In this document: positions 54 to 62,975 of the stretch, one piece after another
How positions within the stretch are numbered: the stretch's first letter is position 1
Layout: the number at the start of each line of letters is the position of its first letter
Source of the DNA: an uncultured Gammaproteobacteria bacterium
Lineage (GTDB): Bacteria > Patescibacteriota > Patescibacteriia > Magasanikbacterales > UBA922
DNA: 64,000 nt
Assembly: GCA_964550845.1 (NCBI GenBank)
Contig: CAZKAD010000001.1
Location: 21,342-85,341, forward strand
Direction: 5' to 3'
Notes under the pieces: generated by a model
Seen by the model: only the letters and a program-made list of their open reading frames with translations
Told to the model about the DNA's origin: nothing
The model's database searches: none
Position numbers and translations under genes: made by a program

Positions 54-410
54 ATGATGTCAATAGTCAAATACTTTCGAGAGCAATTTCCCTCGGTGAA
101 GAAAATGAAATCCCATCTCGAGGTCACATACTTTTGGAACGGAAAAATGTTTTGTGTTCATGTACCAATTCGAATGCAATCAAAATTGCTGAATATTAAA
201 AATCAAGCAGATCAAGACATAACTGAAGAAGTTCGAAAATACCTTGGCCCGCATGAAGATTTTCATGGCTCTTTACATCATCTGCAAAAAGTTTTTACCG
301 AGCATGGTATGATTACACTCACTATGCTAAATGGAAAAGTTGAACTTCGGAACTTGGACGATTTTCATAATTACTTTTTTGGTCTTCATAAGACTTATGT
401 CAAAAACTGA
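54..410 (+). CDS. hypothetical protein (118 aa)
   Basis: Intact ATG-to-stop ORF with no recognisable motif. Confidence 0.35.
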   Translation: MMSIVKYFREQFPSVKKMKSHLEVTYFWNGKMFCVHVPIRMQSKLLNIKNQADQDITEEVRKYLGPHEDFHGSLHHLQKVFTEHGMITLTMLNGKVELRNLDDFHNYFFGLHKTYVKN

Positions 411-2823: not shown

Positions 2824-5781
2824 ATGTCACAGCTCACAACAGGAACTGCGTATATTTTTTCATGGTTTGCGGAAGATGACGGAATGATCCATGCATTCGG
2901 AATGACTCCAGAAAACGAAACTGTTCACTTAATTATTCTCAACTTTACTCGATATTGTTATATTGAATTACCTCCCGAAATTGACTGGGACAATCCAATT
3001 CATCAACGAAGTTTCCAAGAAGCTGTTGGATCAATGAATCAAGAAATTTATCCTCAACAAATGGTCTTTATGAAAAAGCATCGATTGTATCGAGCTCATA
3101 TGGTCAAAACCGATCAAGGTTATCAACGATGTTTATTCCCTTATCTTTTTGTTTGTTTCAAAACGCAAAAGGCAATGATTGATTTCACTCGTCGAGTTAG
3201 TTGGGGAATCTATATTGAATCAATTGGAAGAAAAATTAATTTACGTTCGCATGAACAAGACGCAAGTCCTTTTTTGCAACTCGCAGTTTGTCGCAACATC
3301 CCAATTACCGGTTGGATTGACTTCACTGGAGTGAAGCAATCCGATGACTGGAATAGCTCTTATTGTAAACATGAATATGTACTCAATTGGAATACACTGT
3401 CTGCTTCGAAAGACCAAAAATTGCTCAAGACTTTGCCCAAAGTTAAAATCGTTTCTTTTGATTGGGAGGCAAACTCAACCAATCATAATCGAATGCCAAA
3501 TGAAAAGAAGCCCGGAGATGTCTTGTTTCAATGTTCGATGAGTGTGTTTGAACATGGATCGGATAAAATCGAAAATCATCTTTTGACTCTTGGTTATCCT
3601 GATCCAGCGAAAGTAAGTGAAGGAAGAACCGATCCAGTCAAAATTCATCACTACGCAACTGAAGCTGACATTTTGGAAGGATTTGCCAAAATGATCATTG
3701 AGCTCGATCCACAAGTGATTACCGGATACAATATCATGGGCTGGGATTTCAATTATATGATTGCCCGCGCTAAACTAAACAATGTCTATCAATCATTTTC
3801 CCAATTTGGATACATCAAAGGAATGTCTGCGAAAGAAAAGAACATTACCTGGTCAAGCTCCGCATTTAGCAAACAAAGTTTTTCTTATCCTGCAATTGCC
3901 GGACGAATTATTATTGACATGCTTCCTGTGATTAAAAGAGGGTTTAAGTTTGCCAGTTACACGTTGAGTAATGTTTCAGTTGAAATCCTCGGGCCGAATC
4001 AAACCAAGGATCCTCTCACTCCACAAGGCATTTTCAAATGCTTTCAAATTGGATCACCTGAGACACTATCGATAGTAGGCAAGTATTGTGTGAGAGATTC
4101 CGAAGTCACTTCGTTTCTGTTCCAAAAACTCAAGACTTGGGTTGACAGCTGTCAAATGTCAAGTATTATGGGTGTTCCGATCTTTGATCTTTCGACACAA
4201 GGACAACAAGTTAAGATTTACGCTCAAATTTATCGAGATTGTTTTCTTAAGAATACGGTCGTTGAAAAGAATGGCTATGTCTGTGAAAAAGACGAGAGTT
4301 ATACCGGTGCAATCGTGTTGACACCTATTCCAGGTCTTCATGAAAATGTGGTTACGTTTGATTTCGCCAGTCTGTATCCATCAGTAATTGTGGAAAAGAA
4401 TATTTGTTATTCGACTTGGGTGATTGATCCAAATATTCCAGATGAAGATTGTCACGTACTTGAATGGGAGGATCATATTAATTGTCCTCATGATACCGAA
4501 AAAAGATCCGACAAAAAGAAAGTGATGTGTGCGAAACGTAAATATCGATTTCTTAAGACTCCGCAAGGAATTTTGCCAAATATTCTCACGCGATTGACTG
4601 CTGAAAGAAAGAAAGTGAAGAAAGAGCTCGAGGGGGTTGAAGAAAAGGAGAAGGAAGAAAAAGATCCTATGTTGAAGAAAGATTTGAAGATGTATGCAAC
4701 CATTCTTGACATGACTCAAATTGCAATTAAAACTGTATCCAATAGTATGTATGGTGTGATGGGTGTTACCGAAGGCCGACTGCCTTTTATGCCAGGTGCA
4801 ATGTCGACTACCGCTGGTGGTCGAGCTGCAATTATGAAAGCGAAGAAAATCATCCTTGATCGTCATCCTGGCAAAGTTATTTATGGTGATACCGATTCGT
4901 TGATGTATATCTTCGATGATATGAAGCGTTTCGAAGATGAAAAGGGGAAGATCGATTACAAAGCTCTTGAAAAGTTCTGCAACAAAGTGTCAGAGGAAAT
5001 CTCTTGTCACTTTGCAAAACCGATGAAACTCGAATTTGAAAACATTGCGGAACAATTCTTTATTTTAACCAAGAAAAGATACATTTCAAAACTCAGTAAT
5101 GGAAAAGTTAAAAAGCGAGGTATCATGTTAACTCGACGAGATAACGCCGCTTGCTCGAGAAAAGCTTATGAAGGATTGCTTAATCTTATCTTTCAAAAGG
5201 CACCCCTGGATAAAATTTTTGACTATATTGTTGAAGCTCTCAATCAAATCTATAGCCATTATTACCCAAGCAAAGATTATGCAATCACAAAGAGTATCAA
5301 AGACATCGATACTTACAAAGTCAAAGCTCTTTCAACCGAACTAGTCGCTCGTCAACGACAATTGAAGAATAAGTTTCTTCCTTATGTTGAACCAAACAAT
5401 CCACAGGCCTCGAAGATCGAAGATGAATACAAATTTCGATCTTTGCCAGCCCATGTTCAGTTGGCTGAAACAATGAGATCAAGAGGGTCAATTGTTGAGT
5501 CTGGAAGTCGATTTGCTTATGTAGTGACTACTAAAGGTGGTCCTTCGGGAAAAATGTGGCAAAAGATCGAAAGTCTTGAATATTATTCTCGTCATCAGGG
5601 AATGATCAATTTAGATAGCAATTACTATGGCAAGGCCCTGATTAATCCGTTTGATGAAGTACTTCAAATCATGTTCCAACGACAAAATTTTACTAAACAA
5701 CAACACAAAATTCGTCTGCAAAAATATGAGATGCTCCAAGAGCTGAAGAGATTGATGGCTCCTCAACTTATTGCTGAATAA
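2824..5781 (+). CDS. polB: DNA polymerase, family B
   Basis: Exo I SFDWE, motif A FDFASLYPS, motif B KTVSNSMYG, motif C YGDTDS. 985 aa, uninterrupted. Confidence 0.97.
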   Translation: MSQLTTGTAYIFSWFAEDDGMIHAFGMTPENETVHLIILNFTRYCYIELPPEIDWDNPIHQRSFQEAVGSMNQEIYPQQMVFMKKHRLYRAHMVKTDQGYQRCLFPYLFVCFKTQKAMIDFTRRVSWGIYIESIGRKINLRSHEQDASPFLQLAVCRNIPITGWIDFTGVKQSDDWNSSYCKHEYVLNWNTLSASKDQKLLKTLPKVKIVSFDWEANSTNHNRMPNEKKPGDVLFQCSMSVFEHGSDKIENHLLTLGYPDPAKVSEGRTDPVKIHHYATEADILEGFAKMIIELDPQVITGYNIMGWDFNYMIARAKLNNVYQSFSQFGYIKGMSAKEKNITWSSSAFSKQSFSYPAIAGRIIIDMLPVIKRGFKFASYTLSNVSVEILGPNQTKDPLTPQGIFKCFQIGSPETLSIVGKYCVRDSEVTSFLFQKLKTWVDSCQMSSIMGVPIFDLSTQGQQVKIYAQIYRDCFLKNTVVEKNGYVCEKDESYTGAIVLTPIPGLHENVVTFDFASLYPSVIVEKNICYSTWVIDPNIPDEDCHVLEWEDHINCPHDTEKRSDKKKVMCAKRKYRFLKTPQGILPNILTRLTAERKKVKKELEGVEEKEKEEKDPMLKKDLKMYATILDMTQIAIKTVSNSMYGVMGVTEGRLPFMPGAMSTTAGGRAAIMKAKKIILDRHPGKVIYGDTDSLMYIFDDMKRFEDEKGKIDYKALEKFCNKVSEEISCHFAKPMKLEFENIAEQFFILTKKRYISKLSNGKVKKRGIMLTRRDNAACSRKAYEGLLNLIFQKAPLDKIFDYIVEALNQIYSHYYPSKDYAITKSIKDIDTYKVKALSTELVARQRQLKNKFLPYVEPNNPQASKIEDEYKFRSLPAHVQLAETMRSRGSIVESGSRFAYVVTTKGGPSGKMWQKIESLEYYSRHQGMINLDSNYYGKALINPFDEVLQIMFQRQNFTKQQHKIRLQKYEMLQELKRLMAPQLIAE

Positions 5782-16274: not shown

Positions 16275-18800
16275 TCAAAATTCATTTTGAATTGGTATCA
16301 CAATCACGGGATCTTTGATTGCAGCCATCTTTAGAATCCGAAGTTGAGACTCAAGATCCTTAATCTTCTTTTCATAATCAAGTTGACGTCGTTTGAAATC
16401 ACTGGTTGTTTCTTGGAGTTTAAGTTGATTATTTTTCAAACCGTCTTCAAGTGTCTTAACATGTTGTTTCTTTCCTTCAAGTTGAGACTTCAGTTCTTCT
16501 TCGACAATCGATAATTTTGAATACTTTTCATGGAGTTGAAGGAGTTCTTCTTTTGTCTTTGTATCTTCCTCGGTTGGTTTCCACGTTTTACTCATATTCT
16601 CACGAAGAGTATTGTTTTCATCACACAAGTTAGCCACTTTACCTCGAAGTCCAATATTTTCTTCTTCTAAAGTTTGAGTTCGAACATTTGCAAATTTAAT
16701 TGCTTGTTCGGCAGTCTCATCTTTCTCTTTTAGCAATAAATCGACTTTACTCAATTGTCCTTCGAGTTGAGCAATTTTATCGAGATAATTTGTTTGATTC
16801 GCTCGAAGAGATTCAATTTCGATTATCTTTTGATTCAAATCATCCTGGCAATGTCGAAGATCATCTCGTGAACGATCCGCAACAGATCGAATATTTTCAA
16901 TTTCATTTTTCACTAATGAAATACTTTTCTGAAGTTCAGTGACTAACGCAGTTTTACTGTCAAGTTCTTCAGCCATCTTTTGGAATTGATCAAGTGATTC
17001 TTCATAATTAGCTGGCGTGAGAGTCGGTTGAACAATCAAATTGTATTCTTTCTTAAAGTCTTTCACATCGATACCTTTCTTTTCACAAAGTTCAATTAGC
17101 TTATTAAGATCTTTAGTCAAAGCTGAAATAATGATTTGTTGAGTAGCAAGTTTTTCATTCGCTTCAAAGAGAAGACGTTTGTATTCTTCAACATTCATTT
17201 CAAGATTAACCACCGGTTTGTTCAAAATGGTTTGAGTAATAGCACCAAATCTCAGCGTTGAAAGAGTTTCTTCATAATTGAATTTCGCAGGTGAACAAGT
17301 AATTACCAAATGAGTTTTACTGTTTCCACCGAGGGAATCGGTCAAAAGACGAGTCAATTTTGAATCTCGATATGGAATGAAACTCTTTTTTTCAGCCAAA
17401 CTTCGAATCACCAATCCAAGAGTCAATAATGATTTGTTAGTTGAACTGGCTTGCTTCAACAGCAATCCTTCAGCCTTTGTTTTCGCTACCTTTTCAGATC
17501 CGGCCAAATCGACAAACACTATTCGCGAGATAATTTTCTTTCCAGTCTTCAGTTCATTTTGTTGAAGATGCATCACCAGTACTGAATGACTTCTCGACGA
17601 ATGAGCGTTCATCGCCGTTTCAGCAACTGTTCGATTCAATTCTCCCTTTCTCATTACACGGACAGCATCTTCAAAACAATTGACATAAGTTTCAGTCACA
17701 TCTTCAATCCATAATCCTCGGAAACGATCCTCACGAATCTTTAGGTCATCGCGAAGAGGTGAGAGCAGATCTCGAATTCGCTCGAGATAAATTTCAACAT
17801 ATGACATGCTAACCAAAAATTCATATCCTTTTTTCCCACGAATCGCGGTAAATAAATCTTTGATTAACCGTGGAACTACACCCATCTCAGTTTCGGTTTT
17901 CCAGAGTTCTCCCTCCTGAGACAGAGCATCGGGATTGTCTACCGATGCAGCGTATCCAGTCATTGTAGTAGTTTTTCCTGAATTATGTGTAATAGTTCCA
18001 TCGGCAAGCAAAAATCGTTCAGGACGATCTTTAATCGGTTCAAGTTGAAATCCTGAATACAACCCCATTCCAACATCTTCAATTTCGAATGAATAAGTTT
18101 CAAGGCCCTTCGAGGCCGGTTCAAGGCCCTTCGGGGTTGGTCCAATTTTCTTATCCTCTTTTCCGATCATTCGAACTCCAAGATAATCTTGTTTATTCTT
18201 TTGTTTCAATAGTTCCTTGACTGACATATCAATCAGCTTTGACTCAAATTGGAGTGTCAAAACGTGATCAAGATTCACCGTGTAAAAACTTTTCTTTTTC
18301 ACATCTCGAATTTTAAACATATGTGAAATTCCAGTAAACAACTTGATCACTTCTCGAACATTTCCTTTTTCGTCAACAAGTTTGTCACCGACTTGAACAT
18401 CTCGTGCTTGAATAATAGATCCATCGATCAGTAAGATTAGTGTCTCAGGAGAAAGGCATCCAGACTGACCATAAGCAAAGATAGTTGCATTGTATCCTTG
18501 AAGAATCTCATCAAGTAAAGGTTTACCAACAGCTTGATATACTTGTTCTTGAGTTGCTTTTTCTTCAAACACTTTGTCGTAATAATATCGATTATCTTTT
18601 ACCTCTTGTGGAAGATTAACAACGTTCCCATTCACCACAATCATTCGATTACCTCCATTTTTTAATTCCGTTTCATTACAAGGGCGAAATCGACAAAAAA
18701 CTTTAACATTTCGATCATCTCTTGGCTCTGTCTCATCCGATTTTTTAGACTCTGGTTTAGACTCTCGGGGAGAAAATGGTTTTGATTTTGCTTTCATCAA
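16275..18800 (-). CDS. kinesin motor protein (N-terminal motor, C-terminal coiled coil) interrupted by a mini-intein
   Basis: Switch I SSRSHSV, switch II DLAGSEK, NKSLLTLG, IPYRDSKLTRLL. P-loop split GQSG/SGKTTTM. Long heptad-rich tail. Confidence 0.93.
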   Translation of the reverse strand: MMKAKSKPFSPRESKPESKKSDETEPRDDRNVKVFCRFRPCNETELKNGGNRMIVVNGNVVNLPQEVKDNRYYYDKVFEEKATQEQVYQAVGKPLLDEILQGYNATIFAYGQSGCLSPETLILLIDGSIIQARDVQVGDKLVDEKGNVREVIKLFTGISHMFKIRDVKKKSFYTVNLDHVLTLQFESKLIDMSVKELLKQKNKQDYLGVRMIGKEDKKIGPTPKGLEPASKGLETYSFEIEDVGMGLYSGFQLEPIKDRPERFLLADGTITHNSGKTTTMTGYAASVDNPDALSQEGELWKTETEMGVVPRLIKDLFTAIRGKKGYEFLVSMSYVEIYLERIRDLLSPLRDDLKIREDRFRGLWIEDVTETYVNCFEDAVRVMRKGELNRTVAETAMNAHSSRSHSVLVMHLQQNELKTGKKIISRIVFVDLAGSEKVAKTKAEGLLLKQASSTNKSLLTLGLVIRSLAEKKSFIPYRDSKLTRLLTDSLGGNSKTHLVITCSPAKFNYEETLSTLRFGAITQTILNKPVVNLEMNVEEYKRLLFEANEKLATQQIIISALTKDLNKLIELCEKKGIDVKDFKKEYNLIVQPTLTPANYEESLDQFQKMAEELDSKTALVTELQKSISLVKNEIENIRSVADRSRDDLRHCQDDLNQKIIEIESLRANQTNYLDKIAQLEGQLSKVDLLLKEKDETAEQAIKFANVRTQTLEEENIGLRGKVANLCDENNTLRENMSKTWKPTEEDTKTKEELLQLHEKYSKLSIVEEELKSQLEGKKQHVKTLEDGLKNNQLKLQETTSDFKRRQLDYEKKIKDLESQLRILKMAAIKDPVIVIPIQNEF
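17982..18458 (-). other. mini-intein (159 aa, Hint domain, no endonuclease) inside the kinesin P-loop
   Basis: Begins CLSPETLILLIDGS (block A), has internal TVNLDHVLTL (block B-like), ends FLLADGTITHN followed by +1 Ser. Excision restores GQSGSGKT. Confidence 0.85.
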
Positions 18801-18855: not shown

Positions 18856-18863
18856 AAAATTGA
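18856..18863 (+). promoter_or_regulatory. AAAATTGA promoter-like octamer
   Basis: 86 nt upstream of the ATG8 start, with the TTAAAC array in between. Confidence 0.6.
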
Positions 18864-18880: not shown

Positions 18881-18947
18881 TTAAACATCCTAAAGAACCG
18901 GTTAAACATTCGAAAGACCGGTTAAACATTCGAAAGGAAAATTAAAC
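18881..18947 (+). repeat. TTAAAC-hairpin repeat array (20-21 bp unit, about 3 copies)
   Basis: ttaaacattcgaaagaccgg. Lies between AAAATTGA (18856) and the ATG8 start codon. Confidence 0.9.
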
Positions 18948-18948
18948 A

Positions 18949-19383
18949 ATGAGTTGGGCCGATATGTTTCGTAAAGGGGGTCGATTTTCCGAGGCTCTTC
19001 AAAAGCTCGAACAAAAAAGTCTTGAACAAAGACGAGTCGAAATCAAAAAAATTACCTTTCGATCTCCAGATTCTACTCCAGTAATCGTGATTCCTGAAAA
19101 TGGAATTCGGTTAGACAAAATGAAATATGTTTGTCCATCTGATGTTGACGTTGGACGATTGAATTACATTGTGACAAAGAAAATTCAATCAGCAACTCCA
19201 AATACCGAAAGGGCCTACTTCTTCTTTACTGAAGGAAAGCAAATTCCTCCGACAAGTCAATTGATCAAGGATCTATGCGCAAAAAATAAAAATGAAGATT
19301 TTTCTCTCCATCTTTATTTAACAGCTGAAGAAACGTTTGGATTTTCTTTTCCCATCCAAAATGAACATCCAGAAAGTCTTTGA
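18949..19383 (+). CDS. ATG8: ATG8/LC3/GABARAP-family ubiquitin-like protein
   Basis: Aligns by eye along GABARAP: PDSTPVIVIP, LDKMKYVCPSDVDVG, AYFFFTEGKQIPPTS, EDFSLHLYLTAEETFG followed by a 13-aa tail. Confidence 0.85.
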   Translation: MSWADMFRKGGRFSEALQKLEQKSLEQRRVEIKKITFRSPDSTPVIVIPENGIRLDKMKYVCPSDVDVGRLNYIVTKKIQSATPNTERAYFFFTEGKQIPPTSQLIKDLCAKNKNEDFSLHLYLTAEETFGFSFPIQNEHPESL

Positions 19384-20113
19384 TGATTTCCGTCAAAAGC
19401 CCGGCCGATATCAAAAATTTCTGACTAAATTTGGTCGCGATTTGAAGGGTATTCAAATTGAGACCCTTGAACAATTTCGAAATGTAATTGATCAAATTCA
19501 AGTCAAAGATGATGGTAAAGACGATGGTATTGTTGCTCGAGGTAATGCAAGAGCTCGAGAAATTGATGAAGCGAGTCGAAGAAAAAAATTCCATGATCAT
19601 CTTTATTTTGATTTTGGGTGCTCTGATGGTAAATTGACCCTTGAGATTGCCAAACAGCTTAAGATTCCAACTGAAAATGTATATGGTGCTGATATGGCGT
19701 CGTTTACTGGAGTTAGAATTAACCCTGTGCTCCGTAAACAAAATTTTGAACTAATTGAAAAAGAGGGACAAAAATTGCCCTACAACGATCAAACTTTTGG
19801 TCTCGTGACATGTTTTCAAGTTTTGCATCATCTTCAATTTCCAGAATTGGCAATTGCCGAATTTCATCGAATCCTTCGAAAAGATGGAATGTTGATTATC
19901 CGTGAACATGATGCAAGAGAAGAGGATAAAAGATTGATTGATTTTGAACACTTGATTTATCCTCATGAAAACATCGAACAAACTTATATTGGCAATTATC
20001 ATCAAGCTTCTGAATGGGATCGAATGATGCTTAAACATGGATTTGTTGCATTTGGATTTACGATGACCAAAGGAGAAACTTTTTACTACACTCAATCTTA
20101 CTTGAAGATGTAA
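19361..20113 (+). CDS. class I SAM-dependent methyltransferase
   Basis: Motif I YFDFGCSDG, FGLVTCFQVLHHL, LRKDGMLIIRE. Start uncertain (19337 or 19361) and overlaps the ATG8 3' end. Confidence 0.72.
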   Translation: MNIQKVFDDFRQKPGRYQKFLTKFGRDLKGIQIETLEQFRNVIDQIQVKDDGKDDGIVARGNARAREIDEASRRKKFHDHLYFDFGCSDGKLTLEIAKQLKIPTENVYGADMASFTGVRINPVLRKQNFELIEKEGQKLPYNDQTFGLVTCFQVLHHLQFPELAIAEFHRILRKDGMLIIREHDAREEDKRLIDFEHLIYPHENIEQTYIGNYHQASEWDRMMLKHGFVAFGFTMTKGETFYYTQSYLKM

Positions 20114-39319: not shown

Positions 39320-39982
39320 ATGAATATCGATTTGTTTGACAAATTTCCTTTATCATGTCTAAAATTTAGCGGATCAATTCGGGCCCGTTATGAAAACTTT
39401 GATCAATTTGTTCAGCTTTGTTCCATTATTGCTGAGAAAAAACAGTATCACACTATACATTTCAATCAAGAAGATGCCCGAAAAACTAATTTTACTGATA
39501 TTTCAATTCAATATCATTCGATAAAGAGGATTAATGAAGTTTGTTATTCATCTGAGATGAACGTATTAAAAATAAAGAAAACAATTTTAGGCATTCGATA
39601 CATCAACATCGATAATCTTGATGTACTGCAAAAATTACTTCAGTCACCTACGTTGTATCCTGGAGCTACATTGGACATTGATATTGATTTAGATTATGAA
39701 TCAAGCAACGAAACGAAAAATATAAGCACTAAAAATGAATTGGCTGTATTGGACATGATGATTCAGTCAGAATCACCATTGAGGAATCTTGATATTAAAT
39801 ATTATGTTGGCAATCTTGGTGGAATGAGAGAATTGAATATCAGTAGCTTACTCCGATTGATGCAGTTTGTTTGCTGCGGGTTGAATCTACGTGATTATTC
39901 TACATGGTCTTCCTTTCTAACTCGAGAATTATATGATCCGAGAATACTTAGTTTAATTGCGAAATTTGCATTTTGCATGTAA
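39320..39982 (+). CDS. LYDPR-box family protein, type II
   Basis: ESPLRNL...LMQFVCCGLN...WSSFLTRELYDPRILSLIAKFAF. Confidence 0.8.
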   Translation: MNIDLFDKFPLSCLKFSGSIRARYENFDQFVQLCSIIAEKKQYHTIHFNQEDARKTNFTDISIQYHSIKRINEVCYSSEMNVLKIKKTILGIRYINIDNLDVLQKLLQSPTLYPGATLDIDIDLDYESSNETKNISTKNELAVLDMMIQSESPLRNLDIKYYVGNLGGMRELNISSLLRLMQFVCCGLNLRDYSTWSSFLTRELYDPRILSLIAKFAFCM

Positions 39983-39988
39983 AATTGA
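39981..39988 (+). promoter_or_regulatory. AAAATTGA promoter-like octamer
   Basis: 43 nt upstream of ATG 40031. Confidence 0.65.
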
Positions 39989-40030
39989 TTTCTCTTCGAG
40001 ATAAAAACAATTTATATTATAATTATAGTA

Positions 40031-40693
40031 ATGTTTTCAAACTTACATGAAATAAAATCAGAATTAGTTGGTACAATTAAAACTATTTCTCGATCAGGTG
40101 AAGAGTTTGTCAAACTTTGCGATCAACTTCAACATCTAAATCGTCATACTATTTATTTTTCGACTAATTTTCGATGGTATGCTAATGTTGATGAAAAATT
40201 GGAAGATTTTGAGGACTACGATAGCATTTTTTCTCTTACGATCATTGAATTTGGGACTCAAAATCAATTTGAATTTGAAGCTAAAACTGCCATCTTCAGA
40301 AATAAATGTGTTGAACAAATTCCCCGAATTAACCATATTGATCTCTGGCATGCAGAAGAAATGAATTATCAACTTAATTGCCCTGGTGCAACAGTCGAAC
40401 ATCATTATCGTTCGGGACATAAGAAGGAGATTCATAAAAATTATTTCATACTGCTTCATGATCTCCTCAAATCAGAATCGATGTTGCGCAATTTGAACAA
40501 TGTGGTAACCACGAAAAATGCCATTCGAATCACAGAACTTCTCTCTTTAATGAAAATCATTTGTCTTGGGCTTGTAGATGAGAGCGATTTGAATTCTTTT
40601 TTAACTCGAGAATTGTATGATCCTCGATTGTTAATTACGATTGCCGAATTTACAGATCAACATTCGATTTTAATCAGCGTCAGCCCTTTTTGA
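40031..40693 (+). CDS. LYDPR-box family protein, type II
   Basis: ESMLRNL...LMKIICLGL...NSFLTRELYDPRLLITIAEF. Confidence 0.8.
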   Translation: MFSNLHEIKSELVGTIKTISRSGEEFVKLCDQLQHLNRHTIYFSTNFRWYANVDEKLEDFEDYDSIFSLTIIEFGTQNQFEFEAKTAIFRNKCVEQIPRINHIDLWHAEEMNYQLNCPGATVEHHYRSGHKKEIHKNYFILLHDLLKSESMLRNLNNVVTTKNAIRITELLSLMKIICLGLVDESDLNSFLTRELYDPRLLITIAEFTDQHSILISVSPF

Positions 40694-40710
40694 TGTTTAA
40701 AAACAAAAAT

Positions 40711-40737
40711 GATTTCTCTCTTCTCGAAGAGAGGAAA
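40711..40737 (+). repeat. family-associated intergenic palindrome GATTTCTCTCTTCTCGAAGAGAGGAAA
   Basis: Near-identical copies at about 41457..41485, 42244..42273 and 42901..42929, each just upstream of a type II start codon. Confidence 0.85.
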
Positions 40738-40749
40738 AATAACAATCTC

Positions 40750-41460
40750 ATGTTATCTTCTCTAAAAGAATCGGGACTTGAACTCGTCGGAACATTAAAA
40801 ATTGTTTCACGCAGTTGTGATGATTTTGTCAAACTGTGCCAACAATTTGACAATCTTTATTTTCATCGCCTCTCTTTTTCGGACAATTTCGAATCATATG
40901 TACAAGAGGACAGTAGATTGATCGATTTTGAAGATCAAGACGAAATCTTTGCTCTCACGGTCGTTCAGTTCTTATCAGAATCGGAATATAAATTTAAGGT
41001 AAATAGTTATATTTTCGGAAATGAATGTAATTATCAGATTCCGAATGTTTCTGAAGTTGAACTTTGGGAAGAAAAAGAAATTGATTGTGACTTTGATTGC
41101 CCGAATGCGAGAGTTATTCACAATTATTTTCCTCGATTTGGATTGGAAGTAAATTCTGGAAAAATCTCAAGAAGTCAGGAGGTTTGTAAAAATTATTTAG
41201 TGATGCTTCAACGACTACTCACTTCGGAATCGAGATTGAGAAACTTAGACAATGTAGTGGACCGTTTTAATCATCGAATAAGAGAATTACTGCAATTAAT
41301 GAGACTTATTTGTCTTGGGCTGAATGAAGAGAATTCAAATTCGTCCTTTCGGGACTCGAATATTTTGTCTACCTTTTTGGTCAAAGATTTGTATGATCCT
41401 CGATTGCTGATTCTTATTGCACAATTTGTTGACCAATATTCAATTGTCTTTCAAAACTGA
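40750..41460 (+). CDS. LYDPR-box family protein, type II
   Basis: ESRLRNL...LMRLICLGL...STFLVKDLYDPRLLILIAQF. Start moved to ATG 40750 downstream of the palindrome. Confidence 0.8.
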   Translation: MLSSLKESGLELVGTLKIVSRSCDDFVKLCQQFDNLYFHRLSFSDNFESYVQEDSRLIDFEDQDEIFALTVVQFLSESEYKFKVNSYIFGNECNYQIPNVSEVELWEEKEIDCDFDCPNARVIHNYFPRFGLEVNSGKISRSQEVCKNYLVMLQRLLTSESRLRNLDNVVDRFNHRIRELLQLMRLICLGLNEENSNSSFRDSNILSTFLVKDLYDPRLLILIAQFVDQYSIVFQN

Positions 41461-41500
41461 TTTCTCTCTTCTCGAAGAGAGGAAAATTATTATTTCAGTT

Positions 41501-42187
41501 ATGTTCCCTGCTCTCAGCGAATTAAATCCCGAATTAATCGGAACATTTAAAATCGTCTCCCGATCAAGTGAAGATTTTATTAAACTTTGTCACAAGCTGC
41601 AGAATCAATCTCATCATATAATCTCCTTTTCGGAGAATTTTCAATCATGTATTGAAGATGACGAAAGATTGATCAATTTTGAAAACCAAAATGAAATTTT
41701 CGCCCTTACGGTGCTTGAATTCAGATCAGAAAATCAATTTCAATTAGATGTTGAGACCTTTATTTTCCGTCAGCAATGCGATTCACAAATTCCTGGTGTT
41801 TCCACGATTGAACTTTGGAGTGAAATGGAAATTAATTACCAATTTGATTGTCCCGGTGCAACGGTGGTTCATCGTTACTTTCCTTCACGTCAGAAAAATA
41901 GAATGACTGGTAAAACTACATTGATACCGCAAAGTAAAAAGTATTTCCAAATGTTGCAAAGGTTTCTTCTTTCTGAGTCGCCTTTCCGTAACTTGAATAA
42001 TGTAATTCCTCCTTATGATAGTGTTTCAGTCTCAGAACTCCTTCATTTAATGAGAATTACTTGTCTCGGTCTTGTGGATGATGGGATAATGAACTACTTT
42101 TTAACTCGTGAATTGTACGATCCTCGATTGCTATATTTGATTGCGAAGTTTGGAGATACTTATTCAATTGTGGGGGAATTGGAGTAA
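41501..42187 (+). CDS. LYDPR-box family protein, type II
   Basis: ESPFRNL...LMRITCLGL...NYFLTRELYDPRLLYLIAKF. Start at ATG 41501. Confidence 0.8.
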   Translation: MFPALSELNPELIGTFKIVSRSSEDFIKLCHKLQNQSHHIISFSENFQSCIEDDERLINFENQNEIFALTVLEFRSENQFQLDVETFIFRQQCDSQIPGVSTIELWSEMEINYQFDCPGATVVHRYFPSRQKNRMTGKTTLIPQSKKYFQMLQRFLLSESPFRNLNNVIPPYDSVSVSELLHLMRITCLGLVDDGIMNYFLTRELYDPRLLYLIAKFGDTYSIVGELE

Positions 42188-42245
42188 TCAGAGCAATAGA
42201 AGTAATCGGAGTAATCGGAGTAATCGGAGTAATCAGAGTAAAACT
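42183..42245 (+). repeat. 9-bp tandem repeat, 7 copies (AGTAATCRG)
   Basis: Starts at the stop codon of gene 41501..42187. Confidence 0.85.
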
Positions 42246-42277
42246 GATTTTCTCTCTTCTCGAAGAGAGGAAAAGTA

Positions 42278-42904
42278 ATGTCTTTTTTCAAAGATATAGA
42301 TCCATCAGAGTTTACATCTCTTACAGCAGAGTTAAAGTTTAGTACATTTGAAAGATTAGTTCATTTCATTCAACAAAGTAAAACTGAAAACTCTTATATC
42401 ACCTTAACTTTTAACCGGAGTATCACTGATACATTTGAGGCTAATGCTGAAGTTTGTAGATATTCAGATTCATCTTTCGTCATTCATATACATGTCGAAT
42501 TGAAAGAAGGTCAATCCTTAACTATTCCAAATATAGACGAAGTAAACATCGATCTTAAATATTTATCCACTAAACCCGACATTGATTTTCCGCAAGCAAT
42601 AGTAAAATTACTTTGTGATAGTTCAAGTAGAAATCAACTTGAACCAAAAGCTTTATCCATTTTACTTAATTCAACTTCAAAGCTAAGAAATCTTCCTTTC
42701 TTCTATACTTCATTACATGATAATAATGATGAAGAGCTCAAACTCAACTTTTTGATTCGATTGATGAGACTGGTTTGTTGTGGAATGAGCGAAGAGAATT
42801 CAAACATTTGGTCTACCTTTCTCACAAAAGAATTGTATGATCCTCGATTAATGATTCTGATTGCGCGATTCATCGATCAATGTTCAGATGTCTTACAAAA
42901 CTGA
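42278..42904 (+). CDS. LYDPR-box family protein, type II
   Basis: TSKLRNL...LMRLVCCGM...WSTFLTKELYDPRLMILIARF. Confidence 0.8.
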   Translation: MSFFKDIDPSEFTSLTAELKFSTFERLVHFIQQSKTENSYITLTFNRSITDTFEANAEVCRYSDSSFVIHIHVELKEGQSLTIPNIDEVNIDLKYLSTKPDIDFPQAIVKLLCDSSSRNQLEPKALSILLNSTSKLRNLPFFYTSLHDNNDEELKLNFLIRLMRLVCCGMSEENSNIWSTFLTKELYDPRLMILIARFIDQCSDVLQN

Positions 42905-42936
42905 TTTCCTCTCTTTTCGAAGAGAGGAAAGTAATA

Positions 42937-43571
42937 ATGTCACTCATTAAAGATGTCGATCTTTCAGAGATTATATCTTTGAAAATGGAACTTAAATTTG
43001 GTACCCCTGAAAAATTAATCCGTTTCATTCAACAAAATAAAGGCCAAAATTTTCAATGCAAATTGACCTTTAGCCGTAGTAAAACTGACACATTTGAGGC
43101 TGCTGTCGAAGTTCGCAAACTTTCGAAAATTTTCGTTGTTGATATGCATGTCGAGATGAAAGAAGATCAATCTATAACCATTCCGGATATAGATGAAATC
43201 AACATTAATTTTTCATATTTATCCGAAAAACCAGATATCGATTGCCCGGGAGCAAAAGTATATTTATACTGCGGTGGTTCAATTACTGATCAAATCGAGA
43301 TAGAAACTTTAACTATTTTACTTAATTCAACTTCAAAGCTGAGAAATCTTCCTTTCTTTTGCGTTCCATGGAACAGTATTGACAGAGAAATCTTCCTTTC
43401 TTTTGCGTTCCATGGAACAGTATTGACAGAGAGCTCAAACTCAACTTTCTGATTCGATTGATGAGACTTGTTTGTTGTGGTGTTTGTGAAGAGGATAATG
43501 TATGGCAATTCTTTTTGACTCAAGAATTGTATGATCCGAGATTACTTAGTGGCATTGCAGCGTTTAATTAA
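42937..43571 (+). pseudogene. LYDPR-box family member, type II, frameshifted by a 44-bp tandem duplication
   Basis: Reads ...TSKLRNLPFFCVPWNSIDRE, then duplicated unit 43341..43384 / 43385..43428. Removing one copy restores ...LKLNFLIRLMRLVCCGVCEEDNVWQFFLTQELYDPRLLSGIAAFN, with stop at 43569..43571. Confidence 0.75.
43341..43428 (+). repeat. 44-bp exact tandem duplication
   Basis: gagaaatcttcctttcttttgcgttccatggaacagtattgaca x2. Confidence 0.95.
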
Positions 43572-43620
43572 TTTAGAGAGTCTCGAAGAGACGTTTAACT
43601 AATTCAGAGAGTCAAGAGAA
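43562..43620 (-). repeat. TTAAAC-hairpin repeat, reverse orientation (about 31-bp unit, 2 copies)
   Basis: gtttaaYtaattYagagagtc twice, with gtctc-gaa-gagac stem. Confidence 0.7.
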
Positions 43621-43719
43621 AGTAGCTAATTCAAAATATTCATCTCCTTTCGAAGAGATAAAAAGTGATTAATTCTTTTGCGTATAAAAGAATTAAAATA
43701 AAAGAATTAAAATTAAAAG

Positions 43720-44403
43720 ATGGACAAACCTTTTAACCAGTCTCAAGAGACGTTTAATCCAATTGAGATTTTTCGTATTGAATCTGACACTTTGATTAAG
43801 AAGCTGGGAAAAGGTCCACGTGGAAATATATTGAATGAATATTTTGAAGTGCCTAAAAAATTTACTCAAGGAATGTTGTACTTCTATTTTTCGCATCATG
43901 TATTTGACCACTTTGAAGAAAAGCTCGACACAAAAATTATCTTCCCTCGAAATCAGATAAAAAATTTTCAACTCTTTCTTAAGCAAAATTACCCGGATAC
44001 TTCATCATTTCGATTTCTCTATTATTTACATCAAATACATCCAGAACATTGTATTATTGGTATCGAAAATGGACAAGGTGTCCATCATTTTTTCAAACAT
44101 GACTATGGATTGTACGGAGATATGTATGAAAACTACTATCATTTTCTCGAAATCATTGTTCGATTGATTGGTGAAAAAGTTGATCATGGTTATGATCCAC
44201 TTGGAGAATTGGTTGCCAATGGATTGATCGACAATGGACAATTTTATGCCTTTCTCACAAAAGAATTGTATGATCCTCGTGTTTTAATTATGATTCATCA
44301 ATTTGCCTTCGATCCAAATAAAACTCGATATTTGTCTGCTTCCGGAGAAGTTATGGAAGAAGAAATTAAACAGCTTCAACAAGATGAAAATAATGAAGAT
44401 TAA
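43720..44403 (+). CDS. LYDPR-box family protein, type III
   Basis: FNPIEIFRI...YFYFS...NYPDT...GEKVDHGYDPLGELVANGL...FLTKELYDPRVLIMIHQFAFDP. Confidence 0.8.
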   Translation: MDKPFNQSQETFNPIEIFRIESDTLIKKLGKGPRGNILNEYFEVPKKFTQGMLYFYFSHHVFDHFEEKLDTKIIFPRNQIKNFQLFLKQNYPDTSSFRFLYYLHQIHPEHCIIGIENGQGVHHFFKHDYGLYGDMYENYYHFLEIIVRLIGEKVDHGYDPLGELVANGLIDNGQFYAFLTKELYDPRVLIMIHQFAFDPNKTRYLSASGEVMEEEIKQLQQDENNED

Positions 44404-44487
44404 ATTCTTTTATCTCCTCTCGGGGAGATATAAAAAATGAATTTCCGACGAAACTCAAAGGTATAAAAGAAAGATAGAATAAAAGAA

Positions 44488-45189
44488 ATGACTCAATTTA
44501 CACCAATTGATATCTTTCGAATTGATGCCCAGATTCTAAGTGAGAAAATTGATAATATTAAAAAATATGTCCAGCTCGATGAAAAATTTTCTCGAGGTAT
44601 ATTATACTTTTATTTTTCATGGGAAATAGAAATGGTAAAAGTTTCTCAAAAAGACTGCTTTCACAAGTTCAAGGAATTTCTTCGGCAAAATTATCCAGAT
44701 ACTTTTCCTTTCCATTTTCTCTATCATCTTCATCGGAAAGCAAACAGATCTTACACTTTAGCCGAAAATAACCGAGGAGTTATATATACATATATACATG
44801 ATTATGGTTTGTATGGGAATGAAGTTAGTAATCGTGATAGCTTTTTTGAAACTACTATTCGAACATTTGGTGAAAAAGTTGATCATGGTTATGATCCCCT
44901 TGGCGAATTAGTTGCTTCAGGATTAAACAGTGAAGGCATTTTTCATGCCTTTCTCACAAAAGAATTGTATGATCCTCGTGTTTTGATTTTGATTCATCGA
45001 TTCGCCTTTGATCCAGATAAAGAAAAATTCTACAATGTATATGGAAAGATTGTCGAAGAAGACCTCGACGAGAACGATTCGATGTCATTTGACATAGCAT
45101 CAGACGAAGAGATATTCGATGAAAGTGATGAGGAGATATTCGATGAAAGTGACGATGAAAGTGACGATGAAAGTGATGAAGAGAATTAA
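44488..45189 (+). CDS. LYDPR-box family protein, type III, acidic repeat tail
   Basis: Same architecture, FLTKELYDPRVLILIHRFAFDP, with tail SDEEIFDESDEEIFDESDDESDDE. Confidence 0.8.
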   Translation: MTQFTPIDIFRIDAQILSEKIDNIKKYVQLDEKFSRGILYFYFSWEIEMVKVSQKDCFHKFKEFLRQNYPDTFPFHFLYHLHRKANRSYTLAENNRGVIYTYIHDYGLYGNEVSNRDSFFETTIRTFGEKVDHGYDPLGELVASGLNSEGIFHAFLTKELYDPRVLILIHRFAFDPDKEKFYNVYGKIVEEDLDENDSMSFDIASDEEIFDESDEEIFDESDDESDDESDEEN

Positions 45190-47116: not shown

Positions 47117-50100
47117 TTAACAGATCTTGTTTCGAATTCCTTTAACCAAGGGATCATTTGGACCGAAAATTCGGTGAATCACGTTTCCTTGACCAACTCT
47201 TCCGACTGTTTCGTAGTGATTATTGTCTCGATAAGAAACTAACACAATGCTTGGTCTTCCTTCGGTATAACTACAATCAACTGGAATTGGTTTTCCATCT
47301 TCATCAAGCAAATAGATATCATGGCGAATAAATTCAGACAAAATTTCAAGTACTTCGAGACCAACTTCATTGCCACTCGTTCCAAGATTATCAATGAAAT
47401 TTGCATACGCTTCTTGTTCGGCGAGCTCAAAGATTTTCTTCAAATCAAGCAAACCTCCAGCAGACAAATCTTTTCGAAGAGCTTGTAGTTGAAATGTATT
47501 TTCGAGTTCTTTTTTGTAAACTTCGATCATCTTTGATTGAAGAACTTTATCTTGTTCAAGACGAAGTAAATATTTTTCAAGCTGATATTGATTTCCCATC
47601 ATTGCAACCAAATTGGCTCGACGGCCAAGAAAACCTTCGTTTTTATTGGTCAAATAATAGTGAACAATTGAGTCAAAGCCTGGAACTTTTCTTCCAAATC
47701 CCATTCGTGCAATTCTTCCTTCTCCAACTTTCTTCCATTGGGCAATTGGAATGTTGACTGTTTTTCTCCAATTTTTGACGAACTCTTTCTTCTCATCGTC
47801 TTTCATTTTACGATAATCGATACTTAATGCTGTCTGTAAGGCATGGAAGAAATCATTTCCATCTACAAGAGTACCTGTACGAACCAATCCTTTCTCTTCA
47901 AGAACGATACTGTATACTTTATTCTTTCCAGGGTCAATTGGTTGAAGCGCAAGATCTTCTTGGATATTTACTCCACGAGCAAATCCGGTCAACGGATAGT
48001 AACTTTCTCGAACAAAGAGGAAAGATCGATACAGTCGAGCAAGTTGTTGTTCTTCAGGATCGAGCCATATCGGAGGTGAAAAGATCTCACTCTTTTCAAG
48101 TTTGAATCCGATTGTTTTCATTTTGTCGACGAAGTAATCCCAGTCAACAAGATATTCAATTTGCGTCTCAGCGACTGTCTGACTTCCTTTGTATTGATAT
48201 TCAAGTCCCTTGTTAAATAGAATATTTCCGGAAAATGGTTGATACAATCTCTTCAAAGTCACATTTCCAAGCTGGACAATCCCCTTTTCAAGTATTCGCC
48301 GAGTCGCTTGTCCATCAATGGTGGTTCCAAGGAAATATCCATTTTTCTCAACACTTTCATCAAGTGTTTGAAGAAGACCGTTGAGTGGATCTTCGTTTTC
48401 AAAGAAGAATGACAGCACAAAGAATGAAGTGGCAACTTGGACACGAGATCCGCGCAAAGCTTTCACAATTGTTTCAGTATCTTGCGCTCGAGCTTGAATA
48501 TCAATCAAATTTAGTCGTTGATTGCGAAATTCCATTTCGCTTGCTCTTTGTTTCAATTCGAGGAGAAACTCCGGATTTGGTTCAATTGCAATCAGTCTCG
48601 CTACATGAGCAGTGTAATATTTCATCAAATCTCCTCCTTTTCCAGAACCCAGATCAAGGATAGTTCTTTCGGGGCAGTACAGATTAATCAATTCTCGTTT
48701 AATCGTATTGCTAAACTTACGGAAAGCATCTCGATCTGAACTTTGTTTCAAGGCATTAATTAGTTCTTGTTCGGTGAGAGGATTTTGAATATCAATCCAA
48801 ACGTCTTTTGCAATGTCAACGTAATTTGGTTCAGTTTTATCTGGACGTGCCTTCACCAGTTCAAAAGTTCCGTTGTGCCAACGATATTCTCCAATCTTTG
48901 GAGGATAAAATTTGCTGCGAATGGTACCACGAAAGCCAGGAGGTGTAAAATGAATCAAACCATTTTTACCACCAACCATCAAATTGTACATTTCACCATA
49001 GACTTTCACTGCTGCAAAATCAATGGTCAATTCGTGGACTGGTTTCCACTTATAAGTATGGAAATTTAAATAAGGTTCTGCAATTGGAGTGAGAATTAAA
49101 CCATCATAATTAGGATTATTTCGAATCTCGTTCAACAATTGTTCAGTGTCTTCGGCAATTTGATAAGTCATGAAAAATTGTTTCTTAATGATATCAACAT
49201 CACGCAGACTATTGACCAATTGCTCAATGTATTCAAATCTCTTATCAAGAGTCAATTGACGGACATCTCGATCATGAAGGCAAATCATATCAAAGATATG
49301 AACTTGATTCTTAAAGAATTCACAATCAAAGATTGTTCCATCAAGATCTTCACGAATCTTACTTCGAAAGAGTTCGATGTTACCTTTCATTCCAGCCAGA
49401 AAAAGTTTTTGATCTGTAATAATCCCAATCATCCGCACTCCATTTAATTTTTTAGTCACTGCGTAGGCAGAGAGGTTTAAATTCCATCGTTTCAAATTGA
49501 TCGGTTGAGGAAGACCACGTTTGAACAAAACTGATTCGTCGAACTTTGCGCCATCTTGTTGTTTGAAAAAATTATTAAAGAAGCGAAGTGCGACTTTTGT
49601 ATCAACATTAATCTTCTCTTTGAGAGCATCAAAAGAAGCCCAGATCAACTTAAGTGGCATAAAGAAGGTTTTCAAATCAATATTCTTTGAAAAATATTCA
49701 ACTTCAACTTCATAACTCTCTTGAGTTGAAGTCATCTCAATTGAATGTGAAGCATCCTTAGCAAAGAAAGTAACTCGAGATTTTTCACGAGTCATTTGAA
49801 TTGATCCTGGTTCATCTTGAGTAGGTATTTCCTCTGAAGTGACTAAGTCGATCTTAATAGTATATTCTCCTTGAACTCGATCAAACAAAGTGAATCTCGA
49901 CTTCATCATTTTCCTCACTTTGGTTATTGGTACGTTATCAGTTAAAACTTCTTCAATTCGGATATTATTATCTGACAATTGTGCAAATGTCTTGGAAAAT
50001 TTCCCCTGTTGATAGAGATCAGAATCAGTAATAATTTTGAGTAGCCACATCCATCTCTTTTGATCAGCATTCGGAAATCCAGCCTGAGCTTTACCTTGAT

Positions 50101-50239: not shown

Positions 50240-50271
50240 TGCTTTTATTTCGAGAAAGAAAAAGGAAGATT

Positions 50272-50279
50272 TCAATTTT
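50272..50279 (-). promoter_or_regulatory. AAAATTGA promoter-like octamer (minus strand)
   Basis: 33 nt upstream of the capping-enzyme ATG 50239. Confidence 0.65.
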
Positions 50280-62892: not shown

Positions 62893-62975
62893 TTGACTTT
62901 TTGTGGAAGGAAAAAAGAGAAAAAGATAAATCAATTTCATTCTTCGAGAAGAATCAAAAAGTGGAATTATTTCGC

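Follow-up and report, generated by a model that had tools for sequence, protein, structure and literature searches.

A virus-encoded ATG8-family gene with a conserved terminal glycine and a predicted remodelled docking surface, divergently paired with a kinesin gene

In autophagy, membranes are universally tagged by ATG8 proteins, which serve many pathogens as a target or a tool; what would a virus do with an ATG8 of its own? The question is raised by an open reading frame (ORF) at 18949..19383 (+) of a 64,000-nucleotide stretch of contig CAZKAD010000001.1 (assembly GCA_964550845.1), which was analysed as a whole and is referred to below as the window. According to the ORF listing and the raw sequence, it runs from an ATG start through 144 codons to a TGA stop at 19381..19383. 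An initial annotation, made from the letters alone, had described its product as a virus-encoded ATG8/LC3/GABARAP homologue with an intact processing glycine. The ORF was recovered at the same position, and every peptide quoted in that annotation occurs in its translation: PDSTPVIVIP (aa 40-49), LDKMKYVCPSDVDVG (aa 55-69), FFFTEGKQIPPTS (aa 91-103), and EDFSLHLYLTAEETFG (aa 116-131). The reading that we favour, by a modest balance of probability, is that of an early viral ATG8, which would be trimmed after Gly131, lipidated by host enzymes, and used to serve viral over host partners.

The family assignment of the product is unambiguous in profile searches. PF02991 (ATG8) was its sole significant Pfam match (E=2.3e-16; 60.3 bits, gathering cutoff 27); the alignment covered the entire profile (positions 1-104 of 104) and aa 27-131 of the protein. 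No other ubiquitin-like family was found at E<=10 in this search (ubiquitin, NEDD8, SUMO, ATG12, UFM1, and URM1 were considered), and the viral ubiquitin-family proteins in BFVD matched the ATG8 model far worse (E>=5e-3). The proposed resemblance across the whole ATG8 core is therefore confirmed by an alignment to the full profile, far beyond chance. A sequence search of PDB gave human GABARAPL2/GATE-16 as the best match (E=6e-16) among 113 matched ATG8-family sequences, followed by Arabidopsis ATG8f, insect Atg8, GABARAP, GABARAPL1, LGG-1, and yeast Atg8; these alignments span the region from approximately residue 20 to the terminal FG(F). Zero matches were obtained in the prokaryote-oriented NCBIfam and in the phage collection, as expected for a gene of a eukaryotic virus. 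An exhaustive phmmer search of 1.8 billion representative proteins returned 1110 homologues at E<=1e-3. The closest of these, from the cluster P0012 of a sister virus, is 59% identical to the window protein, while the next best share at most 43% identity. A more distant kinesin-linked relative, encoded at a locus designated L020, is 40% identical.

The predicted fold agrees with this assignment. An AlphaFold2 model computed from a 111-sequence alignment had a mean predicted local distance difference test score (pLDDT) of 88.4, with 91-98 in the core blocks, and a predicted template modelling score of 0.79; low confidence was limited to residues 1-10 and 132-144. Secondary structure assignment by DSSP revealed two N-terminal alpha-helices (H14-20 and H25-38), followed by a beta-grasp core of the order beta-beta-alpha-beta-alpha-beta (E42-49, E59-63, H68-82, E88-93, H106-113, and E120-128). 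All top 50 Foldseek matches in PDB were ATG8-family chains, with a root-mean-square deviation (rmsd) of 1.7-2.2 A over about 110 columns; GABARAP was superposed at 1.7-2.1 A over a similar number of columns (~110). With a single matching Pfam family and 50 of 50 structural matches within ATG8, no rival ubiquitin-like family is left. Judged by sequence and model, the product is a true ATG8-family ubiquitin-like protein of the GABARAP/Atg8 type. Its ubiquitin-like beta-grasp core, aa 39-131, is encoded at 19063..19341 (+) and, as the model elements and a residue table indicate, carries a putatively remodelled docking surface for LC3-interacting regions (LIRs).

The viral protein shares with cellular GABARAP, GATE-16, and yeast Atg8 the two N-terminal helices and the beta-grasp (rmsd of ~1.8 A to GABARAP; 35-43% identity) as well as the removable tail after the glycine. 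It differs from them by a 13-aa N-terminal extension, a beta1-beta2 loop that is three residues shorter, and a three-residue insertion after alpha3. The N-terminal helices had initially been regarded as replaced or extended, and only the second of these options holds. The canonical helices alpha1 (aa 14-20) and alpha2 (aa 25-38), assigned by DSSP, encoded at 18988..19062 (+), and aligned to GABARAP residues 3-24, are intact, and about 13 extra residues are present in front of them (aa 1-13; 18949..18987 (+)). This extension is variable and modelled with low confidence (pLDDT of 56 for residues 1-10), and its sequence shows little conservation in the sister virus and L020.

The opposite end of the protein is of more consequence for its function. 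The family processing and lipidation glycine, Gly131 (codon gga, 19339..19341 (+); located in the raw sequence and by alignment), occupies the sole invariant column in the alignment, being present in 111/111 sequences including those of the sister virus and L020, so that its conservation, as initially claimed, is established. The Thr-Phe-Gly motif is kept in all three proteins, the core of the window protein ending in F130-G131. What follows the glycine differs: FSFPIQNEHPESL (13 aa; 19342..19380 (+)) in the window, Cys-Asp (2 aa) in the sister virus, and no residue at all in L020. The 13-aa tail is disordered (pLDDT of 53-63) and non-conserved, and thus lies outside the fold. The downstream gene, a class-I methyltransferase at 19361..20113 (+) (gene calls in identical contigs; Pfam Methyltransf_11/23/25), begins within the segment encoding the tail; the two genes share 23 nt, which are read in different frames. 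In the sister virus, the stop codon follows Gly-Cys-Asp, the DNA homologous to the window tail is intergenic sequence plus the methyltransferase start, and the two genes do not overlap. On this comparison, the tail is a read-through into the start of the next gene without conserved content, as expected if the tail is removed and the glycine is the mature end. A constant Thr-Phe-Gly motif followed by tails of 13, 2, and 0 residues is also the pattern expected if the glycine is the mature C-terminus.

A removable C-terminus brings to mind an ATG8 module that acts merely as a signal. Host ATG4 does the cleaving at the ATG8-family inserts of the pestivirus bovine viral diarrhoea virus (BVDV). Cytopathic BVDV strains carry LC3, GABARAP, or GATE-16 inserts in their polyprotein (PMC13517609), and the top BFVD match of the viral ATG8 model is such an insert (Q8B512). 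By this precedent, the window ATG8 would be a host-ATG4 cleavage site that frees a downstream viral protein. The reading frames contradict this option, to which we attach practically no weight: Gly131 is followed by 13 residues and a stop codon, the methyltransferase ATG at 19361 lies in another frame, the overlap is missing from the sister virus, and the L020 ORF ends at the glycine. The likeness between the two systems is confined to a virus-borne ATG8-family sequence in which a C-terminal glycine marks a host-protease site. The BVDV inserts are recent, sporadic captures of host mRNA in an RNA-virus polyprotein and are used as a cleavage signal, whereas in the window a DNA virus has held ATG8 since ancient times as a selected, stand-alone gene, and no downstream protein is fused to its product.

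The window belongs to a nucleocytoplasmic large DNA virus (NCLDV). Its NCLDV core genes encode a B-family DNA polymerase (PolB; 2824-5781 (+), 985 aa), a tri-functional mRNA capping enzyme (47117-50275 (-)), the RNA polymerase subunit Rpb1 (54051-56987 (+), 978 aa), the small subunit of ribonucleotide reductase (RNR2), and FEN1/XPG. Also encoded are NUDIX, RNase H, a dual-specificity phosphatase, a serine recombinase, and at least five protein kinases. The presence of PolB, capping enzyme, Rpb1, ribonucleotide reductase, and FEN1 in the same window substantiates the proposal that the ATG8 is virus-encoded.

In the 100 nt ahead of start codons in the window, no word is as strongly enriched as the octamer AAAATTGA. 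It occurs 40 times in the window and precedes 20 of 57 genes, versus 1.6 expected (12-fold). The octamer is located upstream of ~45% of mimivirus genes and is linked to early expression (PMC5294985). On account of this promoter signature, the virus is probably mimivirus-like (Imitervirales); PolB had no named close relative in the protein search, and its family placement is left open. One copy of this mimivirus-type early-promoter motif, at 18856..18863 (+), precedes the ATG8 start codon by 93 nt, and in three strain lineages the motif is found 93, 73, and 72 nt ahead of this start; by analogy with mimiviruses, this suggests that ATG8 is transcribed early. Between the motif and the ATG codon, in what is presumably the 5' leader, Tandem Repeats Finder and a pattern search detected tandem copies of a 20-bp unit, TTAAACATTCGAAAGAACCGG (18881..18936 (+)). 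The number of its copies varies by strain: 2.7 in the window, approximately one in L011, and none recognisable in L009.

Giant viruses often carry recently acquired eukaryotic genes, and the nearest cellular homologues of the window ATG8 are ordinary GABARAP-type proteins. The gene might accordingly be a passenger, that is, a recent capture of a host ATG8 without an adaptive role, or even a product of contamination or misassembly. This option is effectively refuted and in our estimate very improbable. The same ATG8 protein was found in NCBI, ENA, JGI, and Logan assemblies with constant neighbours, one of the contigs being 259 kb long, and the gene order around ATG8 was identical in more than 10 independent assemblies. 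The gene is intron-free, overlaps a viral gene, and is preceded by a viral promoter motif, and its product shares no more than 43% identity with any protein outside its clade. Among the three strain lineages, the ratio of nonsynonymous to synonymous substitutions (dN/dS) is close to 0.1 (0.08-0.11; dS 0.21-0.63, dN 0.024-0.05). ATG8 is under strong purifying selection.

The sister virus, whose PolB is 76% identical to that of the window, displays the same gene order: kinesin with an intein (-), ATG8 (+), methyltransferase (+), alpha/beta-hydrolase (-), kinase (+), HD protein (-), and kinase (+). This synteny, taken together with the dN/dS values, means that ATG8 was present in the common ancestor of the two viruses and was kept by selection; the gene is neither a recent passenger nor a contaminant. 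Word-indexed protein searches returned only two viral clusters and thus no close relative with a name, and scans of IMG/VR with the ATG8 alignment, a single ATG8, a single kinesin, and the kinesin alignment retrieved no relatives.

How well would this ATG8 be handled by the conjugation machinery of a host? The proteins of the window, the sister virus, and L020 were compared site by site to LC3B and GABARAP references checked against PDB (GABARAP numbering is used for the family), and residue frequencies were taken from 107 non-clade homologues. Retained in the window protein are Arg14 (R28), Glu17 (E31), Ile21 (I35), Pro30 (P44), Lys46 (K57), Lys48 (K59), Tyr49 (Y60), Phe77 (F91), and Phe79 (F93) as well as Asp102, Leu105, Glu112, Phe115, and Gly116. 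Elsewhere, the protein departs from the family at positions that are 84-96% invariant, the range being 88-96% for Tyr25, Arg28, Leu50, Arg65, Phe104, and Tyr106. These departures include Tyr25 to Ser39 (Lys in the sister virus), Arg28 to Ser42 (Asn in the sister virus), Leu50 to Val61, Val51 to Cys62, and Tyr106 to His121. A strain-level variant was observed at codon 110 (19276-19278), which encodes Cys110 in the window strain and Tyr in the other strains, in the sister virus, and in 89% of the family.

One departure concerns the contact with ATG4. Thr76 (codon aca, 19174..19176 (+); mapped by alignment) corresponds to GABARAP Arg65 and LC3B Arg68, the arginine that contacts ATG4B. This position is occupied by Arg in 94% and by Thr in 0% of the 107 homologues, and by Val in the sister virus. 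LC3B Arg68 forms a salt bridge with Asp171 of ATG4B, and the Arg-to-Ala mutants of LC3A, LC3B, LC3C, GABARAP, and GABARAPL1 build up the pro-form, although some lipidation persists (PMC3686597). The residues Phe77 and Phe79 (yeast numbering), with a role in ATG4 recognition, and the lipidation-relevant Tyr49 and Leu50 are summarised in the same work (PMC3686597). The former pair, which belongs to the ATG4/UIM surface, is kept as F91 and F93 (F and I in the sister virus; the second position is Leu in LC3B), while the latter is retained or conservatively replaced (Y60 and V61). Thus, the layout of an ATG4-cleavable precursor, as initially described, is present, while its cleavability by ATG4 is not assured with Thr76 in place of the contact arginine. 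Judging from the human Arg-to-Ala mutants, the loss lowers the expected cleavage efficiency and is no disqualifier for membership in the ATG8 family.

The second group of departures falls on the LIR-docking site. In ATG8-family proteins, this site comprises two hydrophobic pockets, HP1 (Glu17, Ile21, Pro30, Lys48, Leu50, and Phe104) and HP2 (Tyr49, Val51, Pro52, Leu55, Phe60, and Leu63); the aromatic pocket HP1 has Phe104 as its floor and Tyr25 and Arg28 along its rim. According to the residue table, HP2 is conservatively kept in the window protein (Y60, C62, P63, V66, L71, and I74). HP1 keeps E31, I35, P44, K59, and V61, its Phe104 floor is replaced by S119, and the rim and electrostatic residues Tyr25 and Arg28 are now Ser39 and Ser42. 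The family Gly103-Phe104 is represented by Phe118-Ser119 (codons at 19300..19305 (+)) in the window and by Phe-Thr in the sister virus; the Ser119 position is Phe in 91% and Ser in 0% of the homologues. Read from the residues, the protein has an intact conjugation end, with the ATG4 contact and the aromatic pocket for LIRs apparently remodelled in the window and sister lineage; efficient cleavage by ATG4 and canonical LIR binding are not assured.

A protein with an altered ATG4 contact could also act without being conjugated. It would then be a soluble decoy, never lipidated, which titrates the host factors that bind ATG8, be they autophagy receptors, ATG4, ATG7, ATG3, or factors for tethering and fusion, and blunts antiviral autophagy. 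The loss of the ATG4B-contact arginine fits this option, as do the 13-aa tail, which would block conjugation if kept, and the early-type promoter, as expected of an antagonist of host defence. The residue pattern speaks against it on several counts. A pure binder needs no Phe-Gly end, yet the Thr-Phe-Gly motif is kept in three lineages with tails of 0-13 aa, and the L020 relative ends exactly at the glycine, pre-primed for conjugation. The canonical LIR pocket, needed for binding of host receptors, is the very part that has diverged, and the loss of Arg65 argues against sequestration of ATG4. We therefore regard a decoy as unlikely.

The neighbourhood of the gene offers a candidate partner. 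A kinesin-1-like motor gene (Pfam Kinesin, 319 bits) is located at 16275..18800 (-), divergent from ATG8. The divergent kinesin/ATG8 pair was detected in three lineages, namely, the window, the sister virus (locus L003, 7485-10411), and L020 (750-3112), with intergenic spacers of 148, 23, and 23 bp, respectively, and with differing flanking genes. At L020, one of the virus-like metagenomic contigs that carry the nearest ATG8s outside the clade, the opposite-strand kinesin starts 23 bp from the ATG8 start. It shares 52% identity with the window kinesin across the motor and the complete coiled-coil stalk, which identifies it as an orthologue. The L020 genes beyond the pair have no homologue in the window or in the 20-kb sister locus, with the exception of one small ORF that has moved; the pair has thus outlived the rearrangement of its surroundings. 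A metagenome scan with the kinesin profile retrieved only the sister virus again as well as cellular or unrelated kinesins without an adjacent ATG8.

The three kinesin-linked ATG8s have in common the N-terminal extension, the beta1-beta2 loop shortened by three residues, VI(V/I)IP in place of VIVEK, and Leu in place of Phe60. The L020 protein still possesses Arg65, Phe104, and Tyr106 and ends exactly at the glycine. This suggests an order of events in which the kinesin-linked viral ATG8 came first, and the ATG4 contact and HP1 were remodelled later in the window and sister lineage.

Directly after the coiled coil, the four kinesin orthologues terminate in a short aliphatic strand followed by Pro: DPVIVIPIQNEF in the window (16278..16313 (-), located in the four-orthologue alignment), DPVILIPIQNEF, RNIVTPIQNEN, and NNIIVPLKY. 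The aligned aliphatic-Pro motifs are VIVIPI, VILIPI, NIVTPI, and NIIVPL, and this C-terminal peptide is a candidate binding site for cargo or ATG8. A canonical LIR was sought as well: the only conserved non-motor [WFY]xx[LIV] match in the four orthologues is EEYKRLL, which belongs to a kinesin-1-type neck and is probably structural. The pentapeptide PIQNE, common to the ATG8 tail and the kinesin C-terminus, was rejected as a shared motif. Its probability is ~0.01 for any shared 5-mer and 7e-5 for the last 20 aa (post hoc), and it is best explained by chance, since the homologous intergenic DNA of the sister virus would read PFKDE and the sister ATG8 ends two residues after the glycine.

The P-loop of the window kinesin is interrupted by a 159-aa mini-intein (17982..18458 (-); Hom_end_hint match; GQSG|CLSPE...THN|SGKT). 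The sister virus has the intein as well, and the L020 orthologue does not (GQTSSGKT). The first report of inteins in cytoskeletal motors dates from 2023 and concerns Anaeramoeba (PMC10710043), and an intein in a viral kinesin appears to be rare.

The conserved divergent pair and the conserved kinesin tail motif would also be explained by a soluble accessory, or 'light chain', of the motor, in which the ATG8 fold serves as a protein or microtubule adaptor for the viral kinesin without lipidation. ATG8-family proteins initially became known as microtubule-associated light chains and binders of tubulin, which adds to the appeal of this option. The invariant terminal glycine speaks against it, and so does the occurrence of other viral ATG8s without a kinesin; on balance, we find it rather improbable.

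The reading that we prefer, a lipidated viral ATG8 with viral partners, can be outlined as follows. The viral ATG8 would be made early in infection. Host ATG4 would trim it after Gly131, the tail being dispensable, and host ATG7 and ATG3 would couple the trimmed protein to a membrane lipid. Host ATG4, ATG7, and ATG3 are invoked here because no viral counterparts are encoded in the window; no homologues of ATG4, ATG3, ATG7, ATG5, ATG12, or ATG16 were detected among its ORFs. Most likely, the conjugated protein would act as a 'private' ATG8, which tags membranes, reads a set of partners unlike that of host ATG8s, and is handled differently by ATG4. This role is suggested by the remodelled sites, that is, Tyr25 to Ser, Arg28 to Ser, Arg65 to Thr, Phe104 to Ser, and Tyr106 to His. 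The favoured partner would be the co-encoded kinesin, bound via the conserved aliphatic strand and Pro of its tail. Such binding would link ATG8-tagged membranes to a plus-end-directed motor, which could move membranes or particles.

In a more specific version, ATG8 and kinesin would form a self-contained, virus-encoded membrane-motor module, in which the non-aromatic groove of the lipid-anchored ATG8 binds the C-terminal aliphatic-Pro motif of the kinesin directly. The ATG8 would be anchored on a factory precursor, a vesicle, or the virion envelope, and viral cargo would be driven along host microtubules, shielded from host LIR proteins and from delipidation by ATG4. We put this version forward as a speculative one, with the chances clearly against it.

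Several observations weigh against a lipidated, kinesin-associated viral ATG8. With Thr76, ATG4 may prime the protein inefficiently, or priming may depend on a host ATG4 that has co-adapted, and Ser119, Ser39, and Ser42 could weaken the recruitment of ATG4, ATG7, and ATG3 that is assisted by LIRs or Atg8-interacting motifs. The exact octamer AAAATTGA was not found upstream of ATG8 in the sister virus or L020. Other NCLDV-like contigs with ATG8 show no kinesin neighbour, and the adjacency of the two genes could reflect simple inheritance of a tightly packed gene pair.

Couplings of ATG8 proteins to kinesins exist in cells. LC3 is connected to kinesin-1 by FYCO1, and GABARAP is associated with KIF5; in addition, the non-aromatic 'CLIR' of NDP52 is bound by LC3C. 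The possible likeness to these systems lies in a lipid-anchored ATG8 that recruits a plus-end motor and in an aliphatic strand that docks without an aromatic residue in HP1. The difference is that the cellular link is made by adaptor proteins, whereas here the motor and the ATG8 are both viral and genetically paired, their direct binding being hypothetical.

A virus-encoded ATG8 as such is already on record. PelV-1, a cultured member of the Mesomimiviridae, is annotated with Atg8 (PelV1_394; PMC12338748), and a 2023 preprint counted ATG8 as a 'viral eukaryotic signature protein', its viral clades being unusually deep (bioRxiv 10.1101/2023.07.11.548585). These reports share with our case an ATG8-family gene in a giant virus of the mimivirus-like world; they differ in offering annotation or phylogeny only and in mentioning no kinesin linkage, the word 'kinesin' having 0 occurrences in the PelV-1 paper (PMC12338748). 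The literature search revealed no paper with phrases such as 'viral ATG8' or 'virus-encoded ATG8'. An ATG8-like fold was also recognised in 'ubiquitin-like proteins' of Marseillevirus and Pithovirus (BFVD D2XB42, A0A481YU40, A0A481YW55, and W5S5B8). These are 100-146 aa long and superpose over 100-121 columns with target-normalised template modelling scores of 0.70-0.88, but share only 19-23% identity with the window protein, and their annotations do not recognise ATG8. The new elements of the present locus are the pairing with kinesin and, as deduced from the alignments, two losses specific to the clade, those of the arginine that contacts ATG4 and of the phenylalanine of HP1.

Viruses are known to use effectors on host ATG8; none is so far known to employ its own ATG8 with a changed specificity, and we know of no giant-virus ATG8 gene that has been studied beyond its listing in surveys. 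The locus offers a concrete, testable case, in which the conjugation chemistry (Phe-Gly, Phe77/Phe79) is apparently kept and the docking pocket and the ATG4 contact are rewritten. If this holds true, the protein would be a natural 'orthogonal' ATG8, by which LIR-docking-dependent functions could be separated from lipidation-dependent ones. If ATG8 and kinesin work together, this would be the first virus to bring both a membrane anchor and a motor for intracellular transport; if they do not cooperate, the gene would be one more giant-virus copy of a eukaryotic gene.

The nearest ATG8s outside the clade are mostly encoded on compact, ORFan-rich, virus-like metagenomic contigs, with neighbours that include Rpb5, YqaJ, NUDIX, RNase T, DUF5832, kinases, and RING proteins. 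These virus-like ATG8s keep the canonical residues (Arg65, Phe104, Tyr25, and Tyr106). Giant-virus ATG8 genes therefore seem to be widespread, and several of the top 'cellular-looking' matches are probably viral. At least three further virus-like lineages (L014, on a 99-kb contig; L016/L017; and L018/L019) have a canonical ATG8 with unrelated neighbours, ending at the glycine or two residues after it. The second-best homologue, P0013 (211 aa, from a 2.2-kb metagenomic contig), is a tandem double ATG8, each domain of which ends in FG.

Some other features of the window deserve mention. The Rpb1 ORF stops early in domain 5; the largest subunit may be encoded in pieces or interrupted, or its remainder may lie elsewhere. 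A 95% identical PolB from another assembly (P0163) is 1465 aa long and contains an intein (PF14890), which is not present in the window PolB; this intein is thus a presence/absence polymorphism between close strains. The two ORFs at 59623-63006 (-) and 54-410 (+) match the virus-associated Pfam families DUF5757 and DUF5772 and may help in the taxonomic placement of the virus. Finally, eight consecutive same-strand ORFs of 190-256 aa at 39320-45189 (+), which have no Pfam match, are mutual paralogues (pairwise BLASTP E-values down to 6.6e-81) and represent a lineage-specific tandem gene family.

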